DNA of 64,000 nt from Lingula anatina (Eukaryota > Animalia > Brachiopoda): contig CM120647.1 in the NCBI GenBank assembly GCA_051362555.1, forward strand, positions 5,766,001 through 5,830,000, written 5' to 3'. Every line of letters starts with the position of its first letter. Within the stretch, counting starts at the first letter, position 1. The position numbers and the translations under genes were made by a program. The notes beneath the pieces were generated by a model, which was not told where the DNA came from, did no database searches, and worked only from the letters and a program-made list of their open reading frames with translations. Below are positions 4,338 through 62,020 of this stretch, piece by piece.

Positions 4338-4921
4338 AAAGATTTAAGATATCAAAAATTTTTTAAAAATTGGAACCAGTTCTTATAACAAGCTGATCTG
4401 CATGTAAATTTTTAGATTCCACTAATTATAATGATTTCAAAATTTCTATTTATTTCCTCTTTTGTCGGGACATTCACTGTCATAAAGGCAATAGATTTCA
4501 ATCTGTCTAAACTAAAACTCCAAAATCCATTACAGGTTTGCCCAGTGCAATCGAAGTTGCTCCGTCAAACACCTTTTCAAAGAGAGGCGTGGGGAACACC
4601 ATCTACGACCGCGTCTCCAGTGATTTGATCAGCAAACTTGAGGAGCTGCTGGAGTTTTACGCACAGTGCAACACGATCGACGAAATCGTGTTTCCTGGCA
4701 TCGAGTTCTCCGCCGAAGAAAAGAAAGCCGTTATCCAGATCGGCCAGAAATACGGCCTGAAAACGTGTGGCACGGAGTACAACAAGATGAATTATGTGCT
4801 AGTGGGCAGAAAATTCACGGGGTCCGACCTGGTGAAGTTTCTGGAACTTCATGGAAACTGTAGCAATAAATATATGTTGGTGAAACCTGATACCTTTCAA
4901 GTGGAGATGAATATACCCTGA
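1082..4921 (+). CDS. NKRF: NF-kappa-B-repressing factor (NKRF)-like protein, 3' part; exons 1082-1211, 4111-4291, 4536-4921; 5' exons not resolved
   Basis: Phase-consistent splicing (cccag|G...ATG|gtgagt; tgtag|ATC...AAAG|gtgtga; tacag|GT) gives YKCTCYIEGRKMGYAENLVKAHAKQKACFEALEYL (dsRBM end), MMAKMGWTGGGLGSSENKGLPSAIEV..KRGVG (G-patch) and FSAEEKKAVIQIGQKYGLKT..YVLVGRK..YMLVKP (R3H-like C-terminus as recalled for NKRF). AATAAA at 5305-5310. Confidence 0.82.
1222..1562. repeat. Intronic minisatellite, ~45-bp unit built of two ~22-23-bp subunits (cactgtcacacccaacacattt-like)
   Basis: Directly visible repeated units. They explain the spurious ORF 1219..1503 (LSHPTHFTVSPNTFP repeats). Degenerate related copies lie near 3875-3980. 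Confidence 0.9.
4295..4330. repeat. (GA)n microsatellite
   Basis: gagaga run immediately after the splice donor. Confidence 0.95.
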
Positions 4922-19995: not shown

Positions 19996-22416
19996 AACAA
20001 CAGTAAGTTGTTCACCTTTGGATTTCTTCTTTTAATCCATCACTGGATATCTTCTTTTAATTCTAGGTTCCTTTTAATTAATTGAATTGTTTATTTATGC
20101 ACCCGTATGCAGTCATGGATTTATTTTATTTGAAAATTATTAGCTATATTGTTTGTTTTGCATTTATTTATATGACGATTAACATTTTAATTAAGCACTC
20201 GAAGGTTTTCTATAATTTTATTCGTATTTATTTATTCAGTGTGACAAAAGATTTAACGCGCATTCTATTCCTCAACAATACATCAAATTATCTAATTGAT
20301 AATTCCTTAGGGGCTAATTTGTTGCGTTTTTTATTCTTTCTAGGTATGCTACGGCTGCAGCAAAGAGACCGACGGCGGAAAATATTCAAATTTTTTTCTT
20401 CAATTCTAAATTTACTGTGAAAATTGATCAATGAAAAAATAAAATGCAGCCAAAAATAGCTCATTCTTGTCGTTAAATACTGCAAACACGGCCAGGCTTT
20501 TTCAATCATTGAAAAATTGAAAGTTTGTGAAAATTATATCTAATTAGGAACTTAATAAGTTAATGAGTTGGGACTGTTGTTTTTAGATAATGTCTTTCTT
20601 TATTTCAAGATTCCATTCATATGTTACTGTTTATCTTTTGCGTTACCAAGTGAGCGACATAAATATGTCCCAATAGCTCGATCTTCCAATGTTTTTATTG
20701 AATGGGAATGTGCTTGAAAACATATTTTTCGTCTATCAAGTGCTTTCAAACGAGTTTTAACTCTTAAAACCCAGGGAAGGTTTGATAAATTTAATTATTC
20801 AGAACATAACGTCACCCTCTTTTTTTTCTTATGAACTGACATTTACAAAATCGGAAAGGCAAGCATAATCGTCATTTGAATTAGTTTTCTTTTCTACACA
20901 TATTGCACGTTTTAAATGGGATTTGTTTACTTTTAAGAATTAAAATTCTCATACGATTACCTACGAAACTGAGTCGAGAAGACAAAAATGATACGCGTGG
21001 AAGCAGATTAAATTATATCCATGTATATGTATGCTGATTCTGGTCTCCCTTGTTGAAAATGCATCCTTACATTAAGATATGATCTGGTCCACTTCGGAGA
21101 CTCTTTCCATATCGAGCGATACAGTTTTCCGTAACGCACCAGTTTGACAGGCCCTTGCATGTACTTTCTGTATGGTTGGTTGTGTGGTGGTAAACAAACC
21201 AATGCACCAATCAAAATTATTCTGTAGACAGATTGCGTGTTGAGCATTTACTCCTTTCAGGAGACCCTTTTATGATATTTAAGCCAAACTATTCTCTCAG
21301 AATCAAGCATGAAAATATAGCATACATGTGCCTTTCGATGCGAAAAAGGGTCATGTAGTTTGCAGAATTTTTTTCTTGATCGTGTTTACGTGCAGCACAA
21401 CGGTGGGCAATATAATCTTCTCTAACGCAATCTTCTCCAGCGCAATACTTTCTAACACAATCGCTTCAACGCGATGGATTCGCACATGAGACGTAATTGA
21501 TGCGTAGAATCTTGACTGTCTAAATCAGCCACATTCAGATCTATTACAAAAAGATTAATTTTTTTCTCAATTCCCATTGTGTGGCATTGTAAGTAAACAA
21601 CATTTTTAGCCTGTGGAGGCCGTCTTGTGCACTACTCAAAGAGCCGGATTCAAGATCTTGTCTAAACTTTTAGACCACGTTTTGAGTCCATTTTGTAAAT
21701 CAGCAGTTGATTAATCGAATGAAACCGTACTCCCATTATGTAACACGACATACATGGCTGTTGTTTCAAAATAATATTTACTTTATTTAAAGGTACATAC
21801 GAACCGAGCATCGGTGGAGCGTGGATTCCAAGTAACACATGTAAACCACATCTACTAGATTCTCATATGGTTCAAATAAATTCGACATGCCAAGGGATAA
21901 ACTGAATAGATCACTCGATCAGCCATAAAAGACCTTTAGACTGCTCCTTTCTTTAAATTTTTGGTTGTAAATTTAACCTACTTTCGTGACCTACATGTAC
22001 TTTCCTGCCCCATTGACATACAGCTTAGAATGCCAGCAGAAAAATCCGTTCAAACATCATTTTTCTCTTAGTTATACTACTTGAAACTATATGCTGGCAT
22101 TTGGTTGATTTTTGTGACAAAAAATTGACTTTGTATGCATCTTTAAGCAAGCTTCTGTGAAAGTATCAGGAACTACAATTAACTAACTTTCTGTCTTAAA
22201 GTTCAGGCCAAAATTCGGGGTAAAATTCTCTTACGAAACTGCCGTGACCAAACAAAATGCTTGTCTGTTGGCGTATAAATTCCCTCGGAGTCGAAAGTCA
22301 GAATTTCGAATCTAGGTTGTTGCGTGATCCGGCACATCCTCGTTTCACATAATGCCCAACGGGTAAGTTTGTAGTTCATTACTTTATAAAATGTCTTAAA
22401 CATCAAATACAGAATG

Positions 22417-25400
22417 TCAGTTGTCATTTCCTGGATCAAACCCGTTGAACCTAAAAGTCGGCCCCGCATTTGGACCAATATCAGGGTTTCCCCCATGTAT
22501 CAAAGGAGTCTGAACAAGTTTTTGCCCTTGGACATACAAGGCATGCATCAAACCGATGCAGTTTCTCAGTTCAGTTGGAAAACCGTTGAAGCATTTCTGA
22601 AGACAATACAAGAGTCCAGAGTACATTCGGGTAAACACGTCCGCCATCATCACAGCCATGGAATTGTTCTCTAATTTGCCGACCGTAGGATTCGGCACCA
22701 TCGGCCAGACGCCTTCACTACTAAACGCAATCCTTGGCCCTGAATATGAGTAGACCGTTTTACATTTCACTGGCGTTTCGGTCTGAGGAGAGAAGATATT
22801 TTCATAATCAGTGGGTGAGTACTTGCCCTTTCTTTTGCAACGCTTTTGGTTATTATCTACCGCCTCCGTGCTTTCTGGACTTACCAACGAGCGTTTGCAC
22901 TTGTCACTCGAATATGACCTCTTTGCGCATGCTCTGTCTTCATCAAGACAAGACCCCCTCGATATCCTAACCTCCCTACCGTAAACAATCTCCGCAAACT
23001 TGAAGTAGTGTGACAGATCGTGGGGGCGGTAAACTGGCGTACATACGTCACTTCCTTCCCCTTGTTCTGTTATAATATCAATGGCTTTTAATGCCGAATG
23101 AAGATCTACTATAGCAAAAGGAAACAACGAAGCGTCTCTCCCGTACCAAAAGGTTGCGTTAATTTGTGTTGACACATTCCCAGTAAAAATTGGCGCAACT
23201 TGAGTTTTACTCAGCGTGATCAGTAATTCTTTGATGCGGTTATAGAAAGTGGAAATCGCTCCTCTTGTATCTCTATAAGAACAGAGGTGCCGACAGCCTG
23301 TAGTGGTACTGGCTGAACAAGCCTGTTGGAAAAAGCCATCTCCACTCACGTGTAACTTGCATTCAGCACAAAGCAACTGGGATGGTTTCTCGATCTCCAT
23401 GAATATAGTTTCAATGTACTCTCGGCTCAGTTTCTGCAGCGAGACAACCAGATCTGGACGTACTCCCCCCGGTAGCTTACTGGGATAGAGCGGGGCATTT
23501 AATGTGGAGGCGATGGATGGGGACCCGCCAATCGCATTCAGCAGATTCCCCACTAGGGCCATGTGAAGCATCTCCTGGACCACAACACTTCTGATCCGCC
23601 GCCCTATCTCCACGTTGAACCCCTCTTTTATGGACATCAGTGCGGTCAGGTACGGTGGAATAGTGCTCAGTTCAAGTTCCAGAGCTTGCTGGAGTAGGCT
23701 GCGGAGATTCTCGATAGTTGGCGCAGGCTGACCTAGTACTGGGTTTTCAAGCCAGCCCAACATCATCTTTCTTTTACGCTTTGACAAATCCCGCGTTGTC
23801 GGCATGTGATGGGGATCATCGATGGGCAAAGACAGAACAGCCTTCATCTTATCCTTGTTCTCCAACACGCTGTGAAAATCAGTGAGATGAACAAAAGACC
23901 GCATAACGGGAAACAGATTGTGATAGGGCTCCAGTGTAGGTAACACGTGGTCGTACCACGTGGGCGTGTCGGGCACGTGGTAGATTTGAAACACACGTGC
24001 TCCAAAATGAAACAGCGCTGCGTCAGATATGCCTCCATAACTCATGTTGATAAAGAGAAGATAAAGCTGTGAGCCCTGAAGTTCTACAACATGAGGATAC
24101 GGGGCTCCCTCCATGGGATCATACGCCATCAGCGGGATATTTGCCAACCCGCCATTCTCTGTGACCACAAACGGCGGGAAGGACAAGGCAGACTGGGGAG
24201 TGCTGAAACCCGTGGTGCAGGGCCCGCATATCTGCATGGGGCAGTGTTCCCCACCATAGTTCAGGCTTAACTCAACACCAGGCTGCGGGTCGCCAAATTT
24301 GCTTGCGAACAAGTGAAAAGACCACGCTTCTCCTGGCTCCTTTCTGTAAGTATTGGTGATCATAGCTCCAACCGTTAACCCGTGGTGTCTCTCCACCAAT
24401 ACCGGTTTTTGGCAGACCAAAGTTCCATTTTCTTTCTTGTATTTAAATATTACAAGCGGAGAGACATGCAATTGTTCTTTAATGGCCTTTCCTGACAGAG
24501 TTTCAGTTAAATTCAGAGTTACCACCCCAGCTGTTCTTTCATACCAATACTCGGTGGTGTAGTTAATTTCACCGGCGTACACGACCTGCGAGTTACAGTC
24601 CACCTCAGAGTTTTCACCCAAAGCAGGCCGAAAACCAACGTACAACCTCCCCAGTGTCTGGGTATTAAAGCTACCACTGAATGAACTCCGGAAGCTATTC
24701 CCTACGTCGATGGTAAGCAAATTCATGGCATGGTCAATTGTGAAAGGGGCGTGGCAGAAGGGTCCAGTGCATTCACTATCACCCGCCTGGAGTTGTCTGG
24801 TAAATCTCATGAAAGGGATGGAGTCATTGGGATGGTGAGGTCCTATCGTCCCAACGAGTCTCCCTAAGCGAAACTTATCACTGGCAACCCTGCTGTCGTA
24901 TTGGTCCAGATTAAACTTAACGGCAAGGGCCAGCGGGTTGGTCTCCCTCAACTCGTCAAGAAATCGGGACTCAAAATCAGGATCCCCGTCCATCCACGTG
25001 AGGTTCGTAAGGACCGATTTAAACTGGGCCCCGGCACTGAAGGTGGAGAGGTTGGGCGTCTCGATGCACCGCAGCCACATCTGCTGCACTGGGGTCGGCG
25101 TGAGGGCGGCACGGATGATCTGGCCTACCTGCAGCTTCATGCCGTGGATGTTGGACAGGGTGTCGCAGGTGGGGCTGATGTCGACCAGTTTAGCAGGTGC
25201 ACGATCGAACCAGTCTAGATTTTAGATTAAAAAAAAAAAGACAAAAGAGGGTAAAACCAGAAGTAGCTGTATAAGAATTAAAGTACATGTACCTGAAGTA
25301 AGAGGAAGCGAAGCAGAAGGCAAATAAGGAATAGCACCAGTAGCATTACAACACATTGCAGTAGTAGTAGTGGTGGCAGTAGTAGTAGCAGCAGCAGCAT

Positions 25401-25438
25401 GCGAAGGAAGTGATGGTAGAAGAAGTAGCAGCTAGTGT

Positions 25439-25469
<31 letters not shown>

Positions 25470-28110
25470 AAGATGTCCTTGTATTTGTTATAGTAGTAAT
25501 AGTAGTAGCGGTAGTACTAGTAATAGTACAGTTGTGGGGTAGGGACATGTAGTGCTGTGTATTATATAGCTACAGTGATAAAAGCTTTACCAGCAGTGCC
25601 AGTAGTAGCGGTTGAAGAAGTGTATTTGATCCGTTAATTAGAACTGAATCTTCTAAATTTGCATACATCAGATATGTATATATTTGTACGTTTTAATTAT
25701 TCAAATATACTTAGACATGACATGTTGCATGGCAGTTTAAGAGAAGTTCATTTAAAATGCAAATCAAGATTTAATTTAAATGTATCTACAATTAAGTTAA
25801 TGTACATAGGCATGGCATGTTTCATGTCAGTTATGAAAGCTAATTTGAAATGCAAATTAAGATAGAGTATAAAGGCAGTGACTGAGCCACAGAGACAGGG
25901 GGACTTACAGACTGAGAGAGTTAGAGATAGTTATAGATACGGTAGAAGAGACCTGAGTCTTCAGGCGCTTGAATAAACCATGTAACAGAAAACTATCCCT
26001 GCCTGTCTCAGTTGTCTTAATTATTGGTGAAAAAGTAACTCAAAGAACAGGTGTATAACCACCGACTGGTTATTACAATTTGCCCTCCCTCTGCCCTAGA
26101 TATTCTACTAAAATTGTCCTCGTCTTTTATCCTATATTCGCGACCAACGCGAGGTAACATGTTTTTATCCTTCCACTCCCTCCCACCGGTAGTAATGTGT
26201 AACTGTGGACCCATAGTCCAAGTTACAATGGATTATAACAAGGGTGTTGAGTAACGCATTTTTCAAATATTGTTCTGTACGTCATGTGAACGGACTACGA
26301 TTCAACGCCGAAGGTACACAGTACAACAACAATAACAACAACAACAACAAAAAAAAAAAAAAAATTATAATAATAATAGTCATTTCCAGAAATCAGTGCC
26401 TACCTTCCACGGACTGCCCCAGTATTTCGTCATCCTGGGACGTACATGTTCCGTCCATATAACACACTCCCGACACATAAGCGTTGTAGAACATAAAGTT
26501 CCCCGTTCCCTGGAAAGAATTCAGAGATTTAATCCTACAGGTTAGGGTTAGCCTGACGTAAATGGGTCAAAACCTGGGCCGAGGCTTACCTGTGCAAATA
26601 AACGGGAACCGGTCTCTCCATTATGGAAGGGGAGGGGGCTGTTTCGCCGACCTCAAAGTGGCCAAAATAGAAAAAAATAAAATTGAGCCCATTTATTTTT
26701 TAACCGACGGCCGGTTGATCATGTGGTTATATTGATTACATAAACTTGTGTCAAACAAAAAAATATGATAAAATCACTACAGTGCCTGTACATAAAAAGG
26801 AAATGAGAAATTAATTTATTTCGCACTTACTACACTGTTAAACCCCTCACTGTCGGCTTGAATTCTTGGCCCGCGATTCCGGGTCATGTTGTGGTTGATA
26901 AGTCTATTATTCGCCGTCATCGGGTCCGAGTGAAAATACCCCGTGAAATGAAGACGAGGAAATCCGAGATAGGAATGTTTCAGCCCTGAATAGATAAATA
27001 AACATAATTATTGATTTGAAAAGACGGACAATTTGTCTACTTATTCTCTGCTTCTAATTTGTCCGCTCATAAAAAAAGAAAACTACATTATCTAGGTAAT
27101 GTATGCTATATTACAAATGTGTAAATTCCATGTATAACACTGTCGCTCTGTTTGCGCTTGTAAGTTATAGAAATATTTGACATAAATATTTTAGAATAAA
27201 TGGAGTAGAGTTTAAGATATTGATAAATATGAGAGGTTTTATGAATACACCTTTAATCTCTTAATCCAACTTTAAAATTGAGGATTTGAGATAAATCAAC
27301 CAAGCTTGTAATATATAGCAATAGGAAACGTTATCTTACAGAGTGCTCTAAAATGTTTTCCTTGTAACTGCCCATTGCTGATATATTTTGCATCTATATA
27401 TGTAGATGTTTACTCAAAAAGGCGCAATTAAAATAATCTGTATTAAATTAACATTAGAACAATAACAAAATAACATAGCGTAAAAGAAAGCTGATATAAA
27501 CAATGAGCAGTGAAGGGGCGAGTATATTTTTGGGACACCCTATAGTGACAATATAGACGGTCATATATATTTAAGAGCTCGGTTTAAAAGATGAATGAAA
27601 AAACTAATGAATTAAATAAGTGAAATTAAATAAATGAAATCAGTTAAAAAGAAATGGAATATAATGAAATACATAAAAATTGCACAGCATATGTGTAAGA
27701 CAGTTTAAAAGGATTTTAAAAAAGTTGTCCCACAAGTATGAATTCCTTAGATTGTCTGTCTTGATATTTGGGACTATTGACTAAAATTAATATGCAACAG
27801 GGCCTGTTACACAAAACAGCTTCTGTTCGACAATCTTTGTTCAGCGTCACTTCTAGAGAAAATTCATAAAAAAACCTAAATATAAATAGTCTACAATGTG
27901 CTCTGAAATATTACCCATGTGTTTATTTTCATACAATAGACAGTTTTTCATTTACACTAATGAGTCATCATGGGCGAAGGTGAACTGAAGTTACAAATAT
28001 GAAAAAGAAGAGCATGAAAACTTACTTTCATTCGTCCTTGAATTAGAAGCGGCAGGTACGATCCCGAGTTGTCCACATATTAATAATACCATGAAAAGAA
28101 ATGTCACCAT
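22417..28110 (-). CDS. Secreted VioB/RebD/StaD-like protein with C-terminal ferritin-like domain, 1047 aa; coding exons 28110-28026, 26985-26831, 26509-26404, 25214-22417
   Basis: Four GT-AG exons join in frame (85+155+106+2798 = 3144 nt): MVTFLFMVLLICGQLGIVPAASNSRTNER-LKHSYLGFPRLHFTGYFHSDPMTANN..-GTGNFMFYNAYVSGV..-DWFDRAPAKLVDISP..(907-aa ORF). Family motifs: PRLHF, GRLVGTIGP, HMPTTRDLS, LQQALELELSTIPPYL, QEMLHMALVGNLL, EIEKP, EQGEG, SHYFKF. An acceptor at 28116-28117 implies an upstream non-coding exon. Confidence 0.85.
25360..25530. repeat. (AGT)n/(AGC)n low-complexity tract in the VioB-like gene intron
   Basis: Imperfect agtagtagt runs. Confidence 0.9.
25680..26077 (+). mobile_element. 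Possible solo-LTR-like insertion in the intron
   Basis: TATAAAGG at ~25868, AATAAA at ~25972, ends ...TATTACA; 5' boundary and TSD not resolved. Confidence 0.3.
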
Positions 28111-57084: not shown

Positions 57085-58206
57085 CATAATTAATTTTATT
57101 TTCGTATAAAGGCATTTGCCCAGATTACAAATGTAAATGGTTCATATAACGTAACTATTGCGCATGCGGAGAGCTCATGTACGTGCACTATCCGTTGCAA
57201 AAAAGATTCTCTTTTTCTAAAGGCATAATAAACATAATTAATCAGGTAAATCATCAAATCTCTGTCATTGGAAGACATGTCTAAACCTTTGGATATTTGG
57301 TTGACAGGTGTACCTGTTTGGTATATATTTTGTTCTTAAGTCCCTGTACATCTCACATGTTAACAAAAAGTGATATTCGTTTTCTATTTCATCCTTACAT
57401 AGTGTGCATACCGTTGTCATGTCTACCTTTTTCAATCATAAGATTATGGTCCACACCTGAGCCTGGCGAAAGCAGCTAAGTGCGCTTTCAGGAGATTCAA
57501 CAATAAATAATTTTCTTTTTGAAATACAGATTTAAATGTACAATACAAATTTAATTTAGACGAGTTCTGTAACTGGCCGTTCCATTCTTGAATGTAGCAA
57601 TCTTTCATTCTTGTCTTAAAAATTTCTAAAAAATATATCTCATTCTAAACACCCTGATTGTACCATACAAACCCAAAACCATATCTAAAAAGTATTTCTT
57701 TAATTTTAGTCGCCCATGTAATGCGACCAGCCTGATCTAATACCAACATAATCTTGTAGCACGCTTTTGGATATCTGCTTTCTTCCATTCTCAGTAATTT
57801 AAGCCAGAATTTGACACACCGACTGAAGTAAGTTATAAACAATGGGAACCTACCACAGTCTCCCAAGACCGCTATTGTTGAAGTTGTTGATCCCACTCCA
57901 AGAATCCTTTTACAGAAAGCAAGTTGTACCTTTTCTATATTGTCATACACTTGGTATCCCCAAACTTCTGCACCGTAAAATAAAATTAGCGCGATCATTT
58001 TATCAAATATCATAAATGCAATATCAGACCTAACCCTCCCAGTGTTATATTCAAGTTTATCAATCATAATCATTGCCTTTCTTGCTTTCAGACTTAAACT
58101 AGTGGTGGCTTTTGTCCAAACGAGCCTTGGCGTTATAGTTAGACCCAGATATTTGTAGTGGGTTACAACTTCAACCGGTTGTCCACCAAAGTACCACATT
58201 TCATAT
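57085..58206 (-). mobile_element. 5'-truncated non-LTR retrotransposon (LINE), ~1.12 kb, 18-bp TSD
   Basis: ORF 57645-58199 has the RT C-terminal YKYLG motif; downstream HNLMIEKGRH motif; TSD TACAAGAAGAGCATATAT at 57067-57084 and 58207-58224; empty site at ~44085. Confidence 0.9.
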
Positions 58207-58671: not shown

Positions 58672-60570
58672 TCATAATTCGAAGATTCTGATCTTGCCAC
58701 TCAGTTCCCCAACTACCAGTTGTCCCAGACGATTTATTACGATATCGTTGGGAAAGCAAAGTCCATCTTCTTCTCTTAAAAGAAATTGCTTGAATTTCCC
58801 ATCTGGTGACACCAGGTGTAGACGATTGTTGCAGAGGTCTGTTAGAATTATGTCTCCGTTATCCAAGCAGCATGTGCCACACGGGGTGTTCACCTGTCCG
58901 TCTCCATCACCCTGGGTACCATATCTGTAATTTACCTGGAGATTGGAATTGTATACACGGATGCCATCATCTCCTGTGATAATCACGTCGTCATTCACGT
59001 TACAGTGGATGTATTTCAAATATTCCTCCTCTGGGTCTGGTGTTGTCTGCAAGACCTTGCCATCTTTGTGGTGCACAGTCAGAGTATTAAGACCGGCTAC
59101 AACATAATGACCCTTGCTGTTGATCGCTACTGCTTCTGGTAACTCACTGTGGAATGTTCTGACGTGGTCCCCTGTCTTGGTGAAGACAATGATTTCATTT
59201 GACTCCCGACAATAAGTTACAATGTTACCGTCATCATCAATGACAGACCCACCAAGCACATCCTTTTCTGTTGCTCTTGGATTAGAAATTGTTCCCTGTA
59301 GGACAAAGTTGTTATCGTAGATGTGGATTCTATTCCGTGCCTTCTCCTCATCACACCAAATACCAATAAGGATGTCACCATTTGTATCAGTGGTCACATG
59401 ACTGATCATCTCTTCAGGACAGTCGGCCAAGTCTACTTTGAATGATGTCACCAATCTTCCACTCGTAGCGTGAACCAAGCGTCCAAGGCAACTGTTGATA
59501 TTGGCAACGCACTCCTCCATGTCGTTGGTGAGAAGCTGCATCTGGGTCATGACTGCAGGCAGGGTCGGGATGTCGATAGCCTGAACGCTCTCGATGCTTT
59601 GCTCACAGGCAGAGGCCATTTGCAGGACATCCATAGCGATCCCATGGTTAATGAGCTTTCTCTAGTAGGCTACAACGTCGTCCAGTCGGTTTTGGTTGGC
59701 GGTTGCAGTTGAAATAAAATTATTTAAAATATCTAATTTGGCATTCGACTTGGCGTCTATTTCTTCCAGAATATCATTGGCAAGTTGACGGGCCGTCGTA
59801 ATTACTAGCTCTAACTGCTTCTCAACTTGAGTCTTTGCCTTTTTTCTTCCTTCTTCTACTGACGCTTTCTGGTCTTCAGCAGCGGTCTTGAACTGATCGT
59901 AGAGTAGACCTTTCTTCTGTGTAGATTTTACGCGAAATTCTAGTTTTTCCTTGCGTATGTCAGCAGCAATGTTTATTCTTAGGCAATCGTGACCCTGATG
60001 TTCTAAAACCATGCAGCCGAGGCAGACGAACTTTTTACAAACTGGACAGTAGATTTCTACGGGGTCCTTGTTGTTGTGGTCACAAAGGGTATTTTGTCGG
60101 GCACGCATCTCTTTCACGTATTCGTCACTGTCAAACTGGTCGACAGGAAACAATTTGTGGTCACGACAGACCTTATGAAGCACATGGTCTGAAGAACAAT
60201 CTCCACACATACTTTCCTCGCAGTCCAAACAGCGTTTTGTTGCCGTGGGTGGATTGGGGACATTTTTCAAACAACATATCGCACATTTCTTGGTATCCTT
60301 GGCTTGTTCTACTTGACCAAGTGTGTGAGATATGCTGACCAGAAGATGATTTGTTTGTAAACCACTAACACCGCCCCCAGGGAGCTCACAATGACCCCTG
60401 CAAATAGGACAAGGGAAGACAGGCTGACCTTTGAAGTTTCTGTCCAAATGGTCTTGGAGGCAATGCTGGCAAAACGTATGTGTACAGCCGAGGACCTTGG
60501 GGTCTTCGAACTTTCCAAGGCATATACGGCACGTTAGGAAATTTTCCGTTAGGATCTTGGACAGAGACAT
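58672..60570 (-). pseudogene. TRIM-NHL copy 5 with in-frame TAG at codon 303 (pseudogene or truncated RBCC protein)
   Basis: 1899-nt frame equal in length to copy 3; paralog TTC TCG (FS) is TAC TAG at 59667-59662; the remainder stays in frame. Confidence 0.88.
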
Positions 60571-62020
60571 GTCCTATAGTTCCAACACCTTAATGTAAAG
60601 AAATGAAACACATCGAATAATTGATGAAGTTTTGGTATTAGATGTCAATTTATACCATTAAGTTACATCTAAATACATGCAGTGTAAGATATACGACTAA
60701 TATAACATGCAATGTTTTAATAAAATAAGAACTCTTTACATATGAAAGAAAAGGAGGACCCCGTAAGGGTGATTTTGACAATAAAAATCAGCTAAGAAAG
60801 GAATATCTTGGTGGTGTTGAATAACAACAAGGTACTTCAGGTATTTCATTTTATGGAATTAAGAGAGGGATAGAAAGGTTTGTCACATTACTTTTTAATT
60901 ACCCAGATGATAATGAGTGCAGTAATATTTATACACAAGAAAAAGATGAATATTAAGTCCGGTCGATGGCAGGACACGCGAAACAGAATATAGCACAAAC
61001 ACAAGGCGAAACTAAAAAAATTAAAAAAAAGGAAAGGAAGGCTGAAATGAAATTGAAAGTAAAAAAAAAAAGATAGACAAGTGATTGAATATTATTTAAA
61101 ATGTATAAAGTGAATTGTTAAACAAATGAAAAACGAGAATCTATTTATATCAGCCGTTGTCTCCTCGTCACGTTTGTCTCCTTAACTACAATAATCTGTT
61201 GACAACTGACAGCAGTGAAAAGATAGTGGCCGTAGTTTGAATTTGGTAATAACTGATAAAAGTAAATTTGAAGGCATTTTAGACATCGGCTGTTTTCGTA
61301 AAGCTTCGGCAAGGGTGACAGGTATCGGATATTGTCAGTCACAACAGATTTGATCGTAAAGTTTGCTTGCCGAGTGGTAACGTCTGTGGGTGTAAAGCAC
61401 AGCAGAGTGGGTGCGAATCCCACTCCTCACCGAATTTTTTTATTTAAATATTATTATTATTATTATTGTTATTATTATCAACTACTACTCTTATCATGGT
61501 TCAATGATTAATATGACGGGTATCAGCCGGTTGGTAAAATTTCTGAAAAGCTAGGGGTTACCGAATTATGACGATTGCATTCTGCAATCCAAACTCGGTG
61601 CCAAAAGTCATTTTCAGTGCACTGCAAAGCCACAAACTGCAGCAAACCCCAACCAAGGTCATTCTCAGATACATTACATTCCCAATATAGTATATTACGA
61701 CATATAAGGAGTGAGTTTTACCTGTACTTTCTCCAGTTATATTTCTCTTGGTGGCAGGTACACGCTCCCAGTCGCCATTTAGGTTTTTTGTCTCTCTTGA
61801 CACGTACACCTGGTCAGGTGAGACGTTTAACGTCCAAGGAGATTTTAAAGTCACCTTAATCAGCAATATGGCGCTATCTCTATGTACACAACAGACATGG
61901 TGACACAATTTATCGCCGTTATCTGACTGAAATCAATCGTGTGCACTGATACGACTGACCTGGTAGAAGTAGCGTATAAAATATATTGAAGATAGATATT
62001 TAACAGTGGCCCGCACTGGA

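Follow-up and report, generated by a model that had tools for sequence, protein, structure and literature searches.

A likely secreted animal homologue of the bacterial VioB/RebD/StaD enzymes encoded in the brachiopod Lingula anatina

A 64,000-nucleotide stretch of the genome of the brachiopod Lingula anatina (GenBank assembly GCA_051362555.1, contig CM120647.1, positions 5,766,001 to 5,830,000; hereafter the window) carries a four-exon gene on its minus strand. Judged by sequence comparison, its product is a whole-length homologue of the bacterial enzymes VioB, RebD and StaD but is not a VioB, and the animal family to which it belongs is a sister group, not an orthologue, of these enzymes. 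We put the probability at about one half that the protein is a secreted oxidase, equipped with haem and a di-iron centre, that couples small aromatic molecules outside the cell. A literature search covering titles and the starts of abstracts, with subscription journals outside its coverage, found no paper on any animal member of the family; UniProt has automatically named some animal members 'iminophenyl-pyruvate dimer synthase domain-containing'.

Profile-profile comparison with hhalign of an alignment of the family (A2, 101 rows) and one of VioB/RebD-like proteins (A4) gave a probability of 100 and an E-value of 1.6e-53 over 808 columns at 21% identity, and the match runs from the N-terminus on and so reaches beyond the ferritin domain. 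A4 holds 13 of 18 VioB/RebD-like proteins, which were extracted from 10 VioB loci (above the cut-off) and 12 RebD/StaD-like loci; hmmsearch with the family profile matched all 18, with E-values of 1e-27 to 1e-42 and the segments in order. Pfam returned PF12902 as the only match (residues 623-859, 182.6 bits against a cut-off of 22.3, E 1e-53). The VioB equivalog model TIGR04492 (NCBIfam) scored 17.9 bits for exon 4 and at most 20.3 for seven relatives, far from its cut-off of 1250, and the Lingula protein is 22-24% identical to VioB/RebD, up to 38% to bacteria of the sister clade and 35-37% to coral and annelid proteins. A preliminary description of this DNA, made from the letters alone, had listed a set of VioB motifs and reported their equivalents here in the same order over a similar length. 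The listed motifs do occur in VioB proteins taken from genomes, and the VioB-family profile match that it proposed to look for does extend outside the ferritin domain, with PF12902 on the Pfam side. Its suggestion that the protein might belong to an uncharacterised VioB-like sister clade was borne out as well.

The same description held that a 907-residue open reading frame is only the last exon of an intron-containing gene. That frame corresponds to Met141 onward of our model, and the three upstream exons named there join it in frame, through introns of 1040, 321 and 1189 bases (phases 1, 0 and 1) bounded by GT..AG, to give 1047 codons and a stop (Table 1). A family profile built without Lingula sequences matched exon 4 (E 5e-239), exon 2 (E 5e-9) and exon 3 (E 4e-8) collinearly, while the next-best of 2140 stop-to-stop segments in the window reached an E-value of 1.1. 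The best protein match, RefSeq XP_013410453.1 from Lingula anatina (716 residues), is 96.5% identical and shows no difference before residue 190, the N-terminus encoded by exon 1 included; it therefore uses the same three junctions. A second RefSeq Lingula protein in the same cluster, XP_013383910.1 (1050 residues), is 91% identical to the model over its full length. With these joins, the RefSeq agreement and the Lingula-free profile, the gene can be taken as real. At 14 positions within residues 190-677 the window protein differs from the two RefSeq copies (P0001 and P0121), themselves identical there, and may come from a third paralogue or a diverged population. An extra exon ending at 26590, at a strong-looking donor, was rejected, as the family profile does without it and the stretch is a transcribed repeat.

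RNA data added little on splicing. We analysed eight of nine runs, reading 6-30% of each, with a listing threshold of three reads per splice joint. The junction check that the preliminary description had proposed gave no joint over any of the three junctions at three or more reads in the eight runs, where depth was too low to count against splicing: exon 4 had low depth in five runs and zero in three. What supports the junctions is therefore homology together with the RefSeq model, and not read evidence. In runs X6 and X5 every exon-4 read has its first mate on the plus strand, a pattern consistent with transcription from the minus strand and a stranded library. Of eight non-synonymous read variants in X6, five agree with both RefSeq copies, so that these reads may derive from an allele or a paralogue.

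The Lingula protein is likely secreted. Its most hydrophobic stretch by hydropathy is residues 2-18, and an N-terminal hydrophobic stretch is present in 30 of 38 named animal proteins against 0 of 74 bacterial ones, by a threshold of our own choosing that is a heuristic and not a signal-peptide predictor; most of the eight animal proteins without it look like truncated or extended models. Cysteine content is 1.7% in animal and 0.65% in bacterial members, and the ratio of observed to expected N-glycosylation sequons is 1.07 (no depletion) against 0.70. Fused fn3, EGF, Kazal, F5/8C, TSP1 and LDLa domains occur in octocoral, amphioxus and tunicate members, and the Lingula model has neither a second hydrophobic segment nor an endoplasmic-reticulum retention motif. 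Retargeting to the secretory pathway, as proposed in the preliminary description, is accordingly likely from the hydrophobic N-termini and the fused extracellular domains.

An AlphaFold2 model made on the 91%-identical copy P0121 (mean predicted local distance difference test, pLDDT, 81; predicted template-modelling score 0.76) divides the protein into the domains listed in Table 1. The N-terminal beta region is a candidate for substrate binding. For its first domain no solved fold was matched in whole-model searches, which barely probe that domain, and the ESM Atlas gave no usable match to residues 36-260. The Ig-like domain matches intimin-type and other Ig folds. The ferritin-like module superposes on PDB 3HL1 with Z 27-28.5 and a root-mean-square deviation (rmsd) of 2.4 over 254-262 residues, and we read Glu630, Glu663, His666, Glu724, Glu835 and His851 in it, with the pattern E..ExxH..E..E..H, as a putative di-iron ligand set by analogy with the ferritin superfamily. 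Among 351 proteins of at least 800 residues these are kept in 345, 346, 347, 345, 339 and 343, respectively, and the two methionines Met553 and Met586 of the preceding helical domain in 345 and 349; each of the eight is present in 18 of 18 VioB/RebD-like proteins. Outside the ferritin module Met553 and Met586 are the sole near-invariant residues that could bind haem; no His or Cys column there is near-invariant, the best being His41 (191/351). The low-confidence insertion in the module is the most variable part between Lingula copies. In one jellyfish member (P0246, Sanderia malayensis) both methionines of the helical domain are kept and most candidate di-iron ligands lost.

That the helical domain has a cytochrome-c-like fold was put down as a hypothesis ahead of the fold test. 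When residues 524-614 were folded alone and searched against 48,161 chains (VIA), c-type cytochrome domains accounted for seven of the eight best rows and for 13 of 50, a count that includes FoxE and the sulfite dehydrogenase B chain, which we take to be c-type cytochromes. Aligned by hhalign with 30 planctomycete cytochrome-c domains, the family scored 22.8 over 71 columns (P 0.001), whereas 40 column shuffles reached no more than 14.8 and the reversed control 8.7; Met553 falls within one residue of the CxxCH histidine and Met586 on the distal methionine. There is no CxxCH haem motif, and residues 449-730 contain no cysteine at all. Given this lack, and a methionine at about the position of the histidine, haem would be held non-covalently between two methionines. 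A complex prediction run without alignments on residues 400-612, the ferritin module, haem and iron scored 0.00, which bears neither way on the proposed site. Published accounts present VioB as a catalase-active haem b enzyme for which no structure has been solved (PMC9705886; PMC12710047), the structure being unsolved in 2021 according to PMC9705886; no VioB, RebD or StaD chain is among the PDB sequence matches. A second invariant methionine pair, Met664 and Met1005, lies in the ferritin-like module and is kept in 11 of 11 ferritin-half proteins checked and in one divergent paralogue. RebD itself reportedly needs non-haem iron too (attributed to Howard-Jones and Walsh, 2005).

Members of the family occur in at least seven animal phyla or subphyla: sponges (the homoscleromorphs Oscarella and Corticium and the demosponge Dysidea), cnidarians (the stony corals Oculina, Montipora and Porites, the octocoral Dendronephthya and the jellyfish Sanderia), the annelid Dimorphilus, the hemichordates Saccoglossus, Ptychodera and Glandiceps, the amphioxus Branchiostoma and the tunicates Ciona, Styela and Clavelina. 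More than 100 metagenome proteins cluster with Dysidea, and the sequences suggest an expansion in demosponges. Vertebrates, arthropods, nematodes, molluscs and echinoderms gave no named match in word-limited searches, which is no proof of absence. We reconstructed a phylogeny in IQ-TREE under LG+C20 with posterior mean site frequencies from 724 columns and 40 of 60 aligned rows, 20 being left out for run time. The 17 animal rows, 14 of them the model or source-labelled and three labelled from an earlier tree, form one clade (support 100/99), within which sponges (89/75), Cnidaria plus Bilateria (97/91), Bilateria (99/96) and Lingula plus Dimorphilus (89/89) are recovered; a FastTree analysis of all 60 rows agrees. 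A constraint placing Lingula outside the animal clade was rejected by the approximately unbiased (AU) test (p-AU 0.019, for a group defined after the tree was known). Rooted on VioB, the animal clade falls among bacterial groups, with a sister-group support of 84/42.

As the tree roughly follows animal phylogeny, we read the family as probably inherited vertically since early animals, with many lineage losses. The wide spread, the single animal clade and the rejection of a tree with Lingula outside it indicate that any transfer from bacteria would have been single and at or before the origin of animals, and one ancient transfer before sponges and other animals split appears the simplest origin. 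The horizontal acquisition put forward in the preliminary description would thus hold, if at all, in this old form and not as an event specific to Lingula, and the phylogeny that it called for joins the animals in one clade while leaving the bacterial sister group less firmly placed. Two pairs of possibly eukaryotic rows were placed among bacteria and may be separate transfers. Six Logan proteins (P0205, P0184, P0327, P0204, P0244 and P0234) have N-terminal extensions, are placed among bacterial members and possibly come from other eukaryotes that acquired them separately; P0234 ends in a C-terminal OTU domain.

At 50% identity the bacterial sister group (E up to 1e-30) falls into 2353 clusters, of which many are half-length. 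Neighbourhoods were taken from the best 80 of 593 loci, ranked by likeness to one Undibacterium protein, of which 53 span at least 15 kb. Among the 79 with matches, 40 have a single fused gene and 24 adjacent half genes. No VioA/RebO-like gene was found in the 80 loci; the same queries recovered one in all 10 VioB loci and in five of the 12 RebD-like loci with short flanks, a result that is partly by construction. In five sister-clade genomes a VioA query matched only FAD-binding N-termini, in three of the five. Sister-clade genes often have genes of secondary metabolism nearby: at least three ebo genes lie within 8 kb at 16 of the 80 loci, from about five lineages, and in some actinomycete loci P450, aminotransferase-methyltransferase or adenylation genes adjoin the sister gene. 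The ebo core, found in 4,405 of 124,295 genomes, uses a cyclitol and aspartate to make thallusin (bioRxiv 10.64898/2026.05.21.724671). In Pseudomonas, indole products are influenced by a variant of ebo (PMC12904256); the available text of PMC12904256 and PMC5133447 has no mention of a VioB-like gene. Because a VioA-type neighbour is lacking and ebo/thallusin genes often adjoin, the substrate of the sister and animal proteins is probably not a VioA-made tryptophan imine, and the bacterial context weakly suggests small-molecule oxidation on something else. Beside split VioB-like pairs we also observed a conserved exported protein of about 350 residues with no Pfam match (L035:11276-12421, L055, L060, L063, L067, L077, L079 and L080), in which none of nine open reading frames checked has a CxxCH motif, and recurrent small glyoxalase-like and DedA/VTT genes. 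Another pair of half genes, arranged in the opposite order (L035:12761-15657 and L055:12837-15724), branches between VioB and the sister clade on a long branch.

Under our preferred reading, a secreted coupling oxidase, exon 1 would route the protein into the secretory pathway and haem would sit non-covalently between Met553 and Met586 in the cytochrome-c-like domain, where, with both axial positions ligated, it would act as an electron carrier. The ferritin-like bundle would bind a pair of irons, with four Glu and two His as ligands, and hand the electrons on to O2 or H2O2. An oxidisable aromatic substrate in the N-terminal beta region would lose one electron per molecule and dimerise as in VioB; candidates are an aryl-pyruvate or its imine, an indole or a phenol, and probably not a tryptophan imine from a VioA partner.

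Several results weigh against this reading or the ancestry that goes with it, and it should be held cautiously. For the cytochrome-like domain, the best fold match, PccH, has a low Z (5.9, rmsd 3.1, 80 residues aligned), the hhalign probability was 21% for a planctomycete family picked by eye, Foldseek returned nothing and the Pfam and PDB sequence searches found no cytochrome; haem may instead, or also, bind at the Met664/Met1005 pair. Among the 87 family columns with at least 90% conservation, only 44 are common to VioB/RebD, and the Lingula protein departs from six highly conserved family columns (for example Asp129Ser and Arg488Tyr). The indole/imino-acid coupling suggested in the preliminary description may or may not take place: the cofactor residues are kept, but half of the most conserved family positions differ from VioB/RebD and the bacterial sister genes have no neighbour resembling VioA/RebO. 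No such metabolite is known to us from Lingula, and the RNA runs analysed showed low expression of the gene. The ebo genes are absent near 64 of the 80 bacterial loci, and the main text of the thallusin preprint, as available, does not mention a VioB-like or ferritin-like gene (bioRxiv 10.64898/2026.05.21.724671). As to ancestry, the matches of the word-limited searches included no unicellular relative of animals by name, three animal rows owe their label to an earlier tree, and the AU-test group was set with the tree in hand. A first tree without the split bacterial genes rooted the long VioB branch inside animals, so the position of the root depends on sampling.

The main rival reading postulates an extracellular enzyme that handles peroxide or iron, of a catalase/peroxidase or ferroxidase-like kind, with the same centres and no coupling product. 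Just one module has been solved, the ferritin-like one, and it resembles Dps, bacterioferritin, rubrerythrin and Mn catalase; VioB shows catalase activity in its own right (PMC9705886), fungal PF12902 genes adjoin H2O2-producing LodA-type oxidases (PMC4417212), the ebo product thallusin carries Fe(III) (bioRxiv 10.64898/2026.05.21.724671), and many of the 40 fused bacterial genes have no biosynthetic neighbours. We nevertheless consider this somewhat unlikely: an N-terminal half of 600 residues in register with VioB exceeds what detoxification needs, and the highly expanded and diverged demosponge-type sequences would better fit diversification of substrates. A mention of PF12902 in schistosomes was set aside, as it refers to an ordinary ferritin in its source. 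Alternatively, the protein could be an extracellular-matrix tanning oxidase that cross-links Tyr, 3,4-dihydroxyphenylalanine (DOPA) or Trp side chains in tunic, shell periostracum, tube or sponge skeleton. Secretion, TSP1 domains in three of three tunicate proteins scanned, fn3/EGF fusions in the octocoral and the sessile or burrowing habit of hosts with tough matrices would suit this role; no matrix-type domain occurs in the Lingula, coral, hemichordate and sponge proteins scanned, however, and the bacterial members have no signal peptides, which makes it decidedly unlikely.

A functional equivalent of VioB/StaD, which in the animal would make chromopyrrolic-acid or bisindole pigments by dimerising indole-3-pyruvate imine, would account for the eight shared candidate cofactor residues. 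Coupling of that imine is the sole reaction known for this fold family (PMC10851217), and ascidians and sponges are reported sources of indolocarbazoles and related bisindoles (PMC12842986). We find it very unlikely nonetheless, given the TIGR04492 score of 17.9 against 1250, the lower identity to VioB/RebD than to sister-clade bacteria (22-24% versus 38%), the long separate branch and the contrast in VioA/RebO-like neighbours (0/80 versus 10/10 loci). That the gene is a recent, Lingula-specific bacterial transfer or a contaminant is largely refuted and scarcely credible. Its best bacterial identity (38%) does equal the coral and annelid level (35-37%), and most of its coding sequence lies in one long exon; against this stand three spliceosomal introns, animal TRIM-NHL neighbours, two RefSeq Lingula loci, and the nesting of Lingula within bilaterian sequences with p-AU 0.019.

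A bolder and unlikely proposal would be that animals have owned a secreted VioB-type coupling enzyme since before the sponge split, that it is the missing host enzyme of marine 3,4-diaryl-pyrrole and bisindole alkaloids (lamellarin-, lukianol- and fascaplysin-type, usually credited to symbionts), and that the whole VioB/RebD/StaD class has a cytochrome-c fold devoid of CxxCH, with a Met/Met haem wired to a di-iron centre. The alkaloid link is hypothetical, its sole grounds being the chemistry and the range of hosts; oxidative dimerisation of aryl-pyruvates has served as a biomimetic route to lamellarin cores (PMC4278223). If aromatic imine or pyruvate coupling is indeed the activity, this would be the first animal-encoded route to a bacteria-only chemistry, present in phyla that yield marine pyrrole and bisindole alkaloids. 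Whatever the substrate, the family is one of conserved, likely secreted, predicted metalloenzymes as old as animals. The Met/Met haem proposal bears directly on VioB, which is widely used, offers a colour read-out, and whose structure and haem ligands are reported as unsolved (PMC9705886).

Table 1 Features of the gene in the window (residue numbers refer to the 1047-residue model)
Feature	Position	Strand	Basis or remark
Exon 1	28026..28110	-	Start codon and predicted signal peptide, residues 1-28; GT donor, phase 1
Exon 2	26831..26985	-	Residues 29-80; conserved family start, point where bacterial members begin; AG/GT ends
Exon 3	26404..26509	-	Residues 81-116, part of N-terminal beta domain; AG/GT ends
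Exon 4	22417..25214	-	Residues 116-1047 and stop; open frame
Rest of N-terminal long-stranded beta domain (to ~245) and second beta-sandwich (~255-390)	24391..25214	-	Secondary structure, AlphaFold2
Ig-like domain, ~391-525	23986..24390	-	VIA-align Z 9.9-10.1, rmsd 2.2-2.4, 92-98 aligned
Helical domain, predicted cytochrome-c-like, no CxxCH	23719..23991	-	Model pLDDT 88; proposed haem ligands Met553, Met586
Codons of Met553 and Met586	23902-23904; 23803-23805	-	Both invariant in 69/69 fragments
Ferritin-like module (PF12902 623-859 and C-terminal helix pair)	22450..23718	-	Pfam; 3hl1 overlay; conservation
Cys-/Lys-rich low-confidence insertion in ferritin-like module	22780..22947	-	pLDDT <50 at P0121 875-930
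AATAAA, putative polyadenylation signal	21782..21787	-	Only one within 1.1 kb past the stop; edge of transcribed repeat

The surrounding DNA is animal. The window has a GC content of about 37% and a TRIM-NHL gene cluster at 31.5-60.6 kb, and GC at third codon positions, 0.54 in the VioB-like gene and 0.47-0.49 in four TRIM genes, is unremarkable. No VioA/RebO/StaO-like FAD tryptophan oxidase was found in the window among open reading frames of at least 120 residues. The cluster (31557-60573, minus strand) is a tandem array of five single-exon TRIM-NHL-type genes with RING, B-box and NHL domains, and one of them, 58672-60573, is interrupted by an in-frame stop near 59662. Two open reading frames have no Pfam match: 57645-58205 (minus), presumably a decayed tail of a LINE reverse transcriptase, and one of 136 residues at 4511-4921 (plus), which we take to be exon-like. 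Directly behind the gene lies a highly transcribed dispersed repeat (21787-22146; one copy in the window), whose reads are 90-95% alike and have loose ends, and further transcribed repeats lie within intron 2 (26520-26700, with a donor-like site at 26590) and intron 3 (25730-26080).

Compared with known systems, the Lingula protein shares with VioB/RebD/StaD, which are iminophenyl-pyruvate dimer or chromopyrrolic acid synthases, whole-length homology, the order of domains and the same eight candidate haem and iron ligands; it differs in being only 21-24% identical and far under the TIGR04492 cut-off, and half of the most conserved positions of its family are different. VioB, RebD and StaD are cytosolic and have no signal peptide, whereas the Lingula gene has introns and, by our heuristic, a hydrophobic N-terminal exon with a predicted signal peptide; animal proteins also contain more Cys, and the bacterial sister genes of the animal family lack a VioA/RebO oxidase partner. 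That bacterial sister clade is closest in the tree and alike in its 33-38% identity and shared clade-specific motifs. Its members, fused proteins of about 900 residues or a split N-terminal half and ferritin-like half, often beside ebo, differ in beginning at the conserved motif, with a signal peptide in 0 of 74. Caulobacter CC_0557 (PDB 3HL1, PF12902) has the fold of the C-terminal 430 residues but stands alone at 317 residues, without the N-terminal half. Class I c-type cytochromes (PccH, diheme cytochrome c, planctomycete PSCyt1) resemble the helical domain in predicted fold, distal Met-Pro motif and placement of the C-terminal helix, whereas CxxCH is missing from the Lingula domain and the match is weak. 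Bacterioferritin shares the E-M-x-H helix, whose methionine (Met664) presumably corresponds to its haem-binding Met position, and the di-iron ligand set; the Lingula module, in contrast, has large insertions, an extra helix pair and a fusion to three or four further domains, with no sign of a cage.

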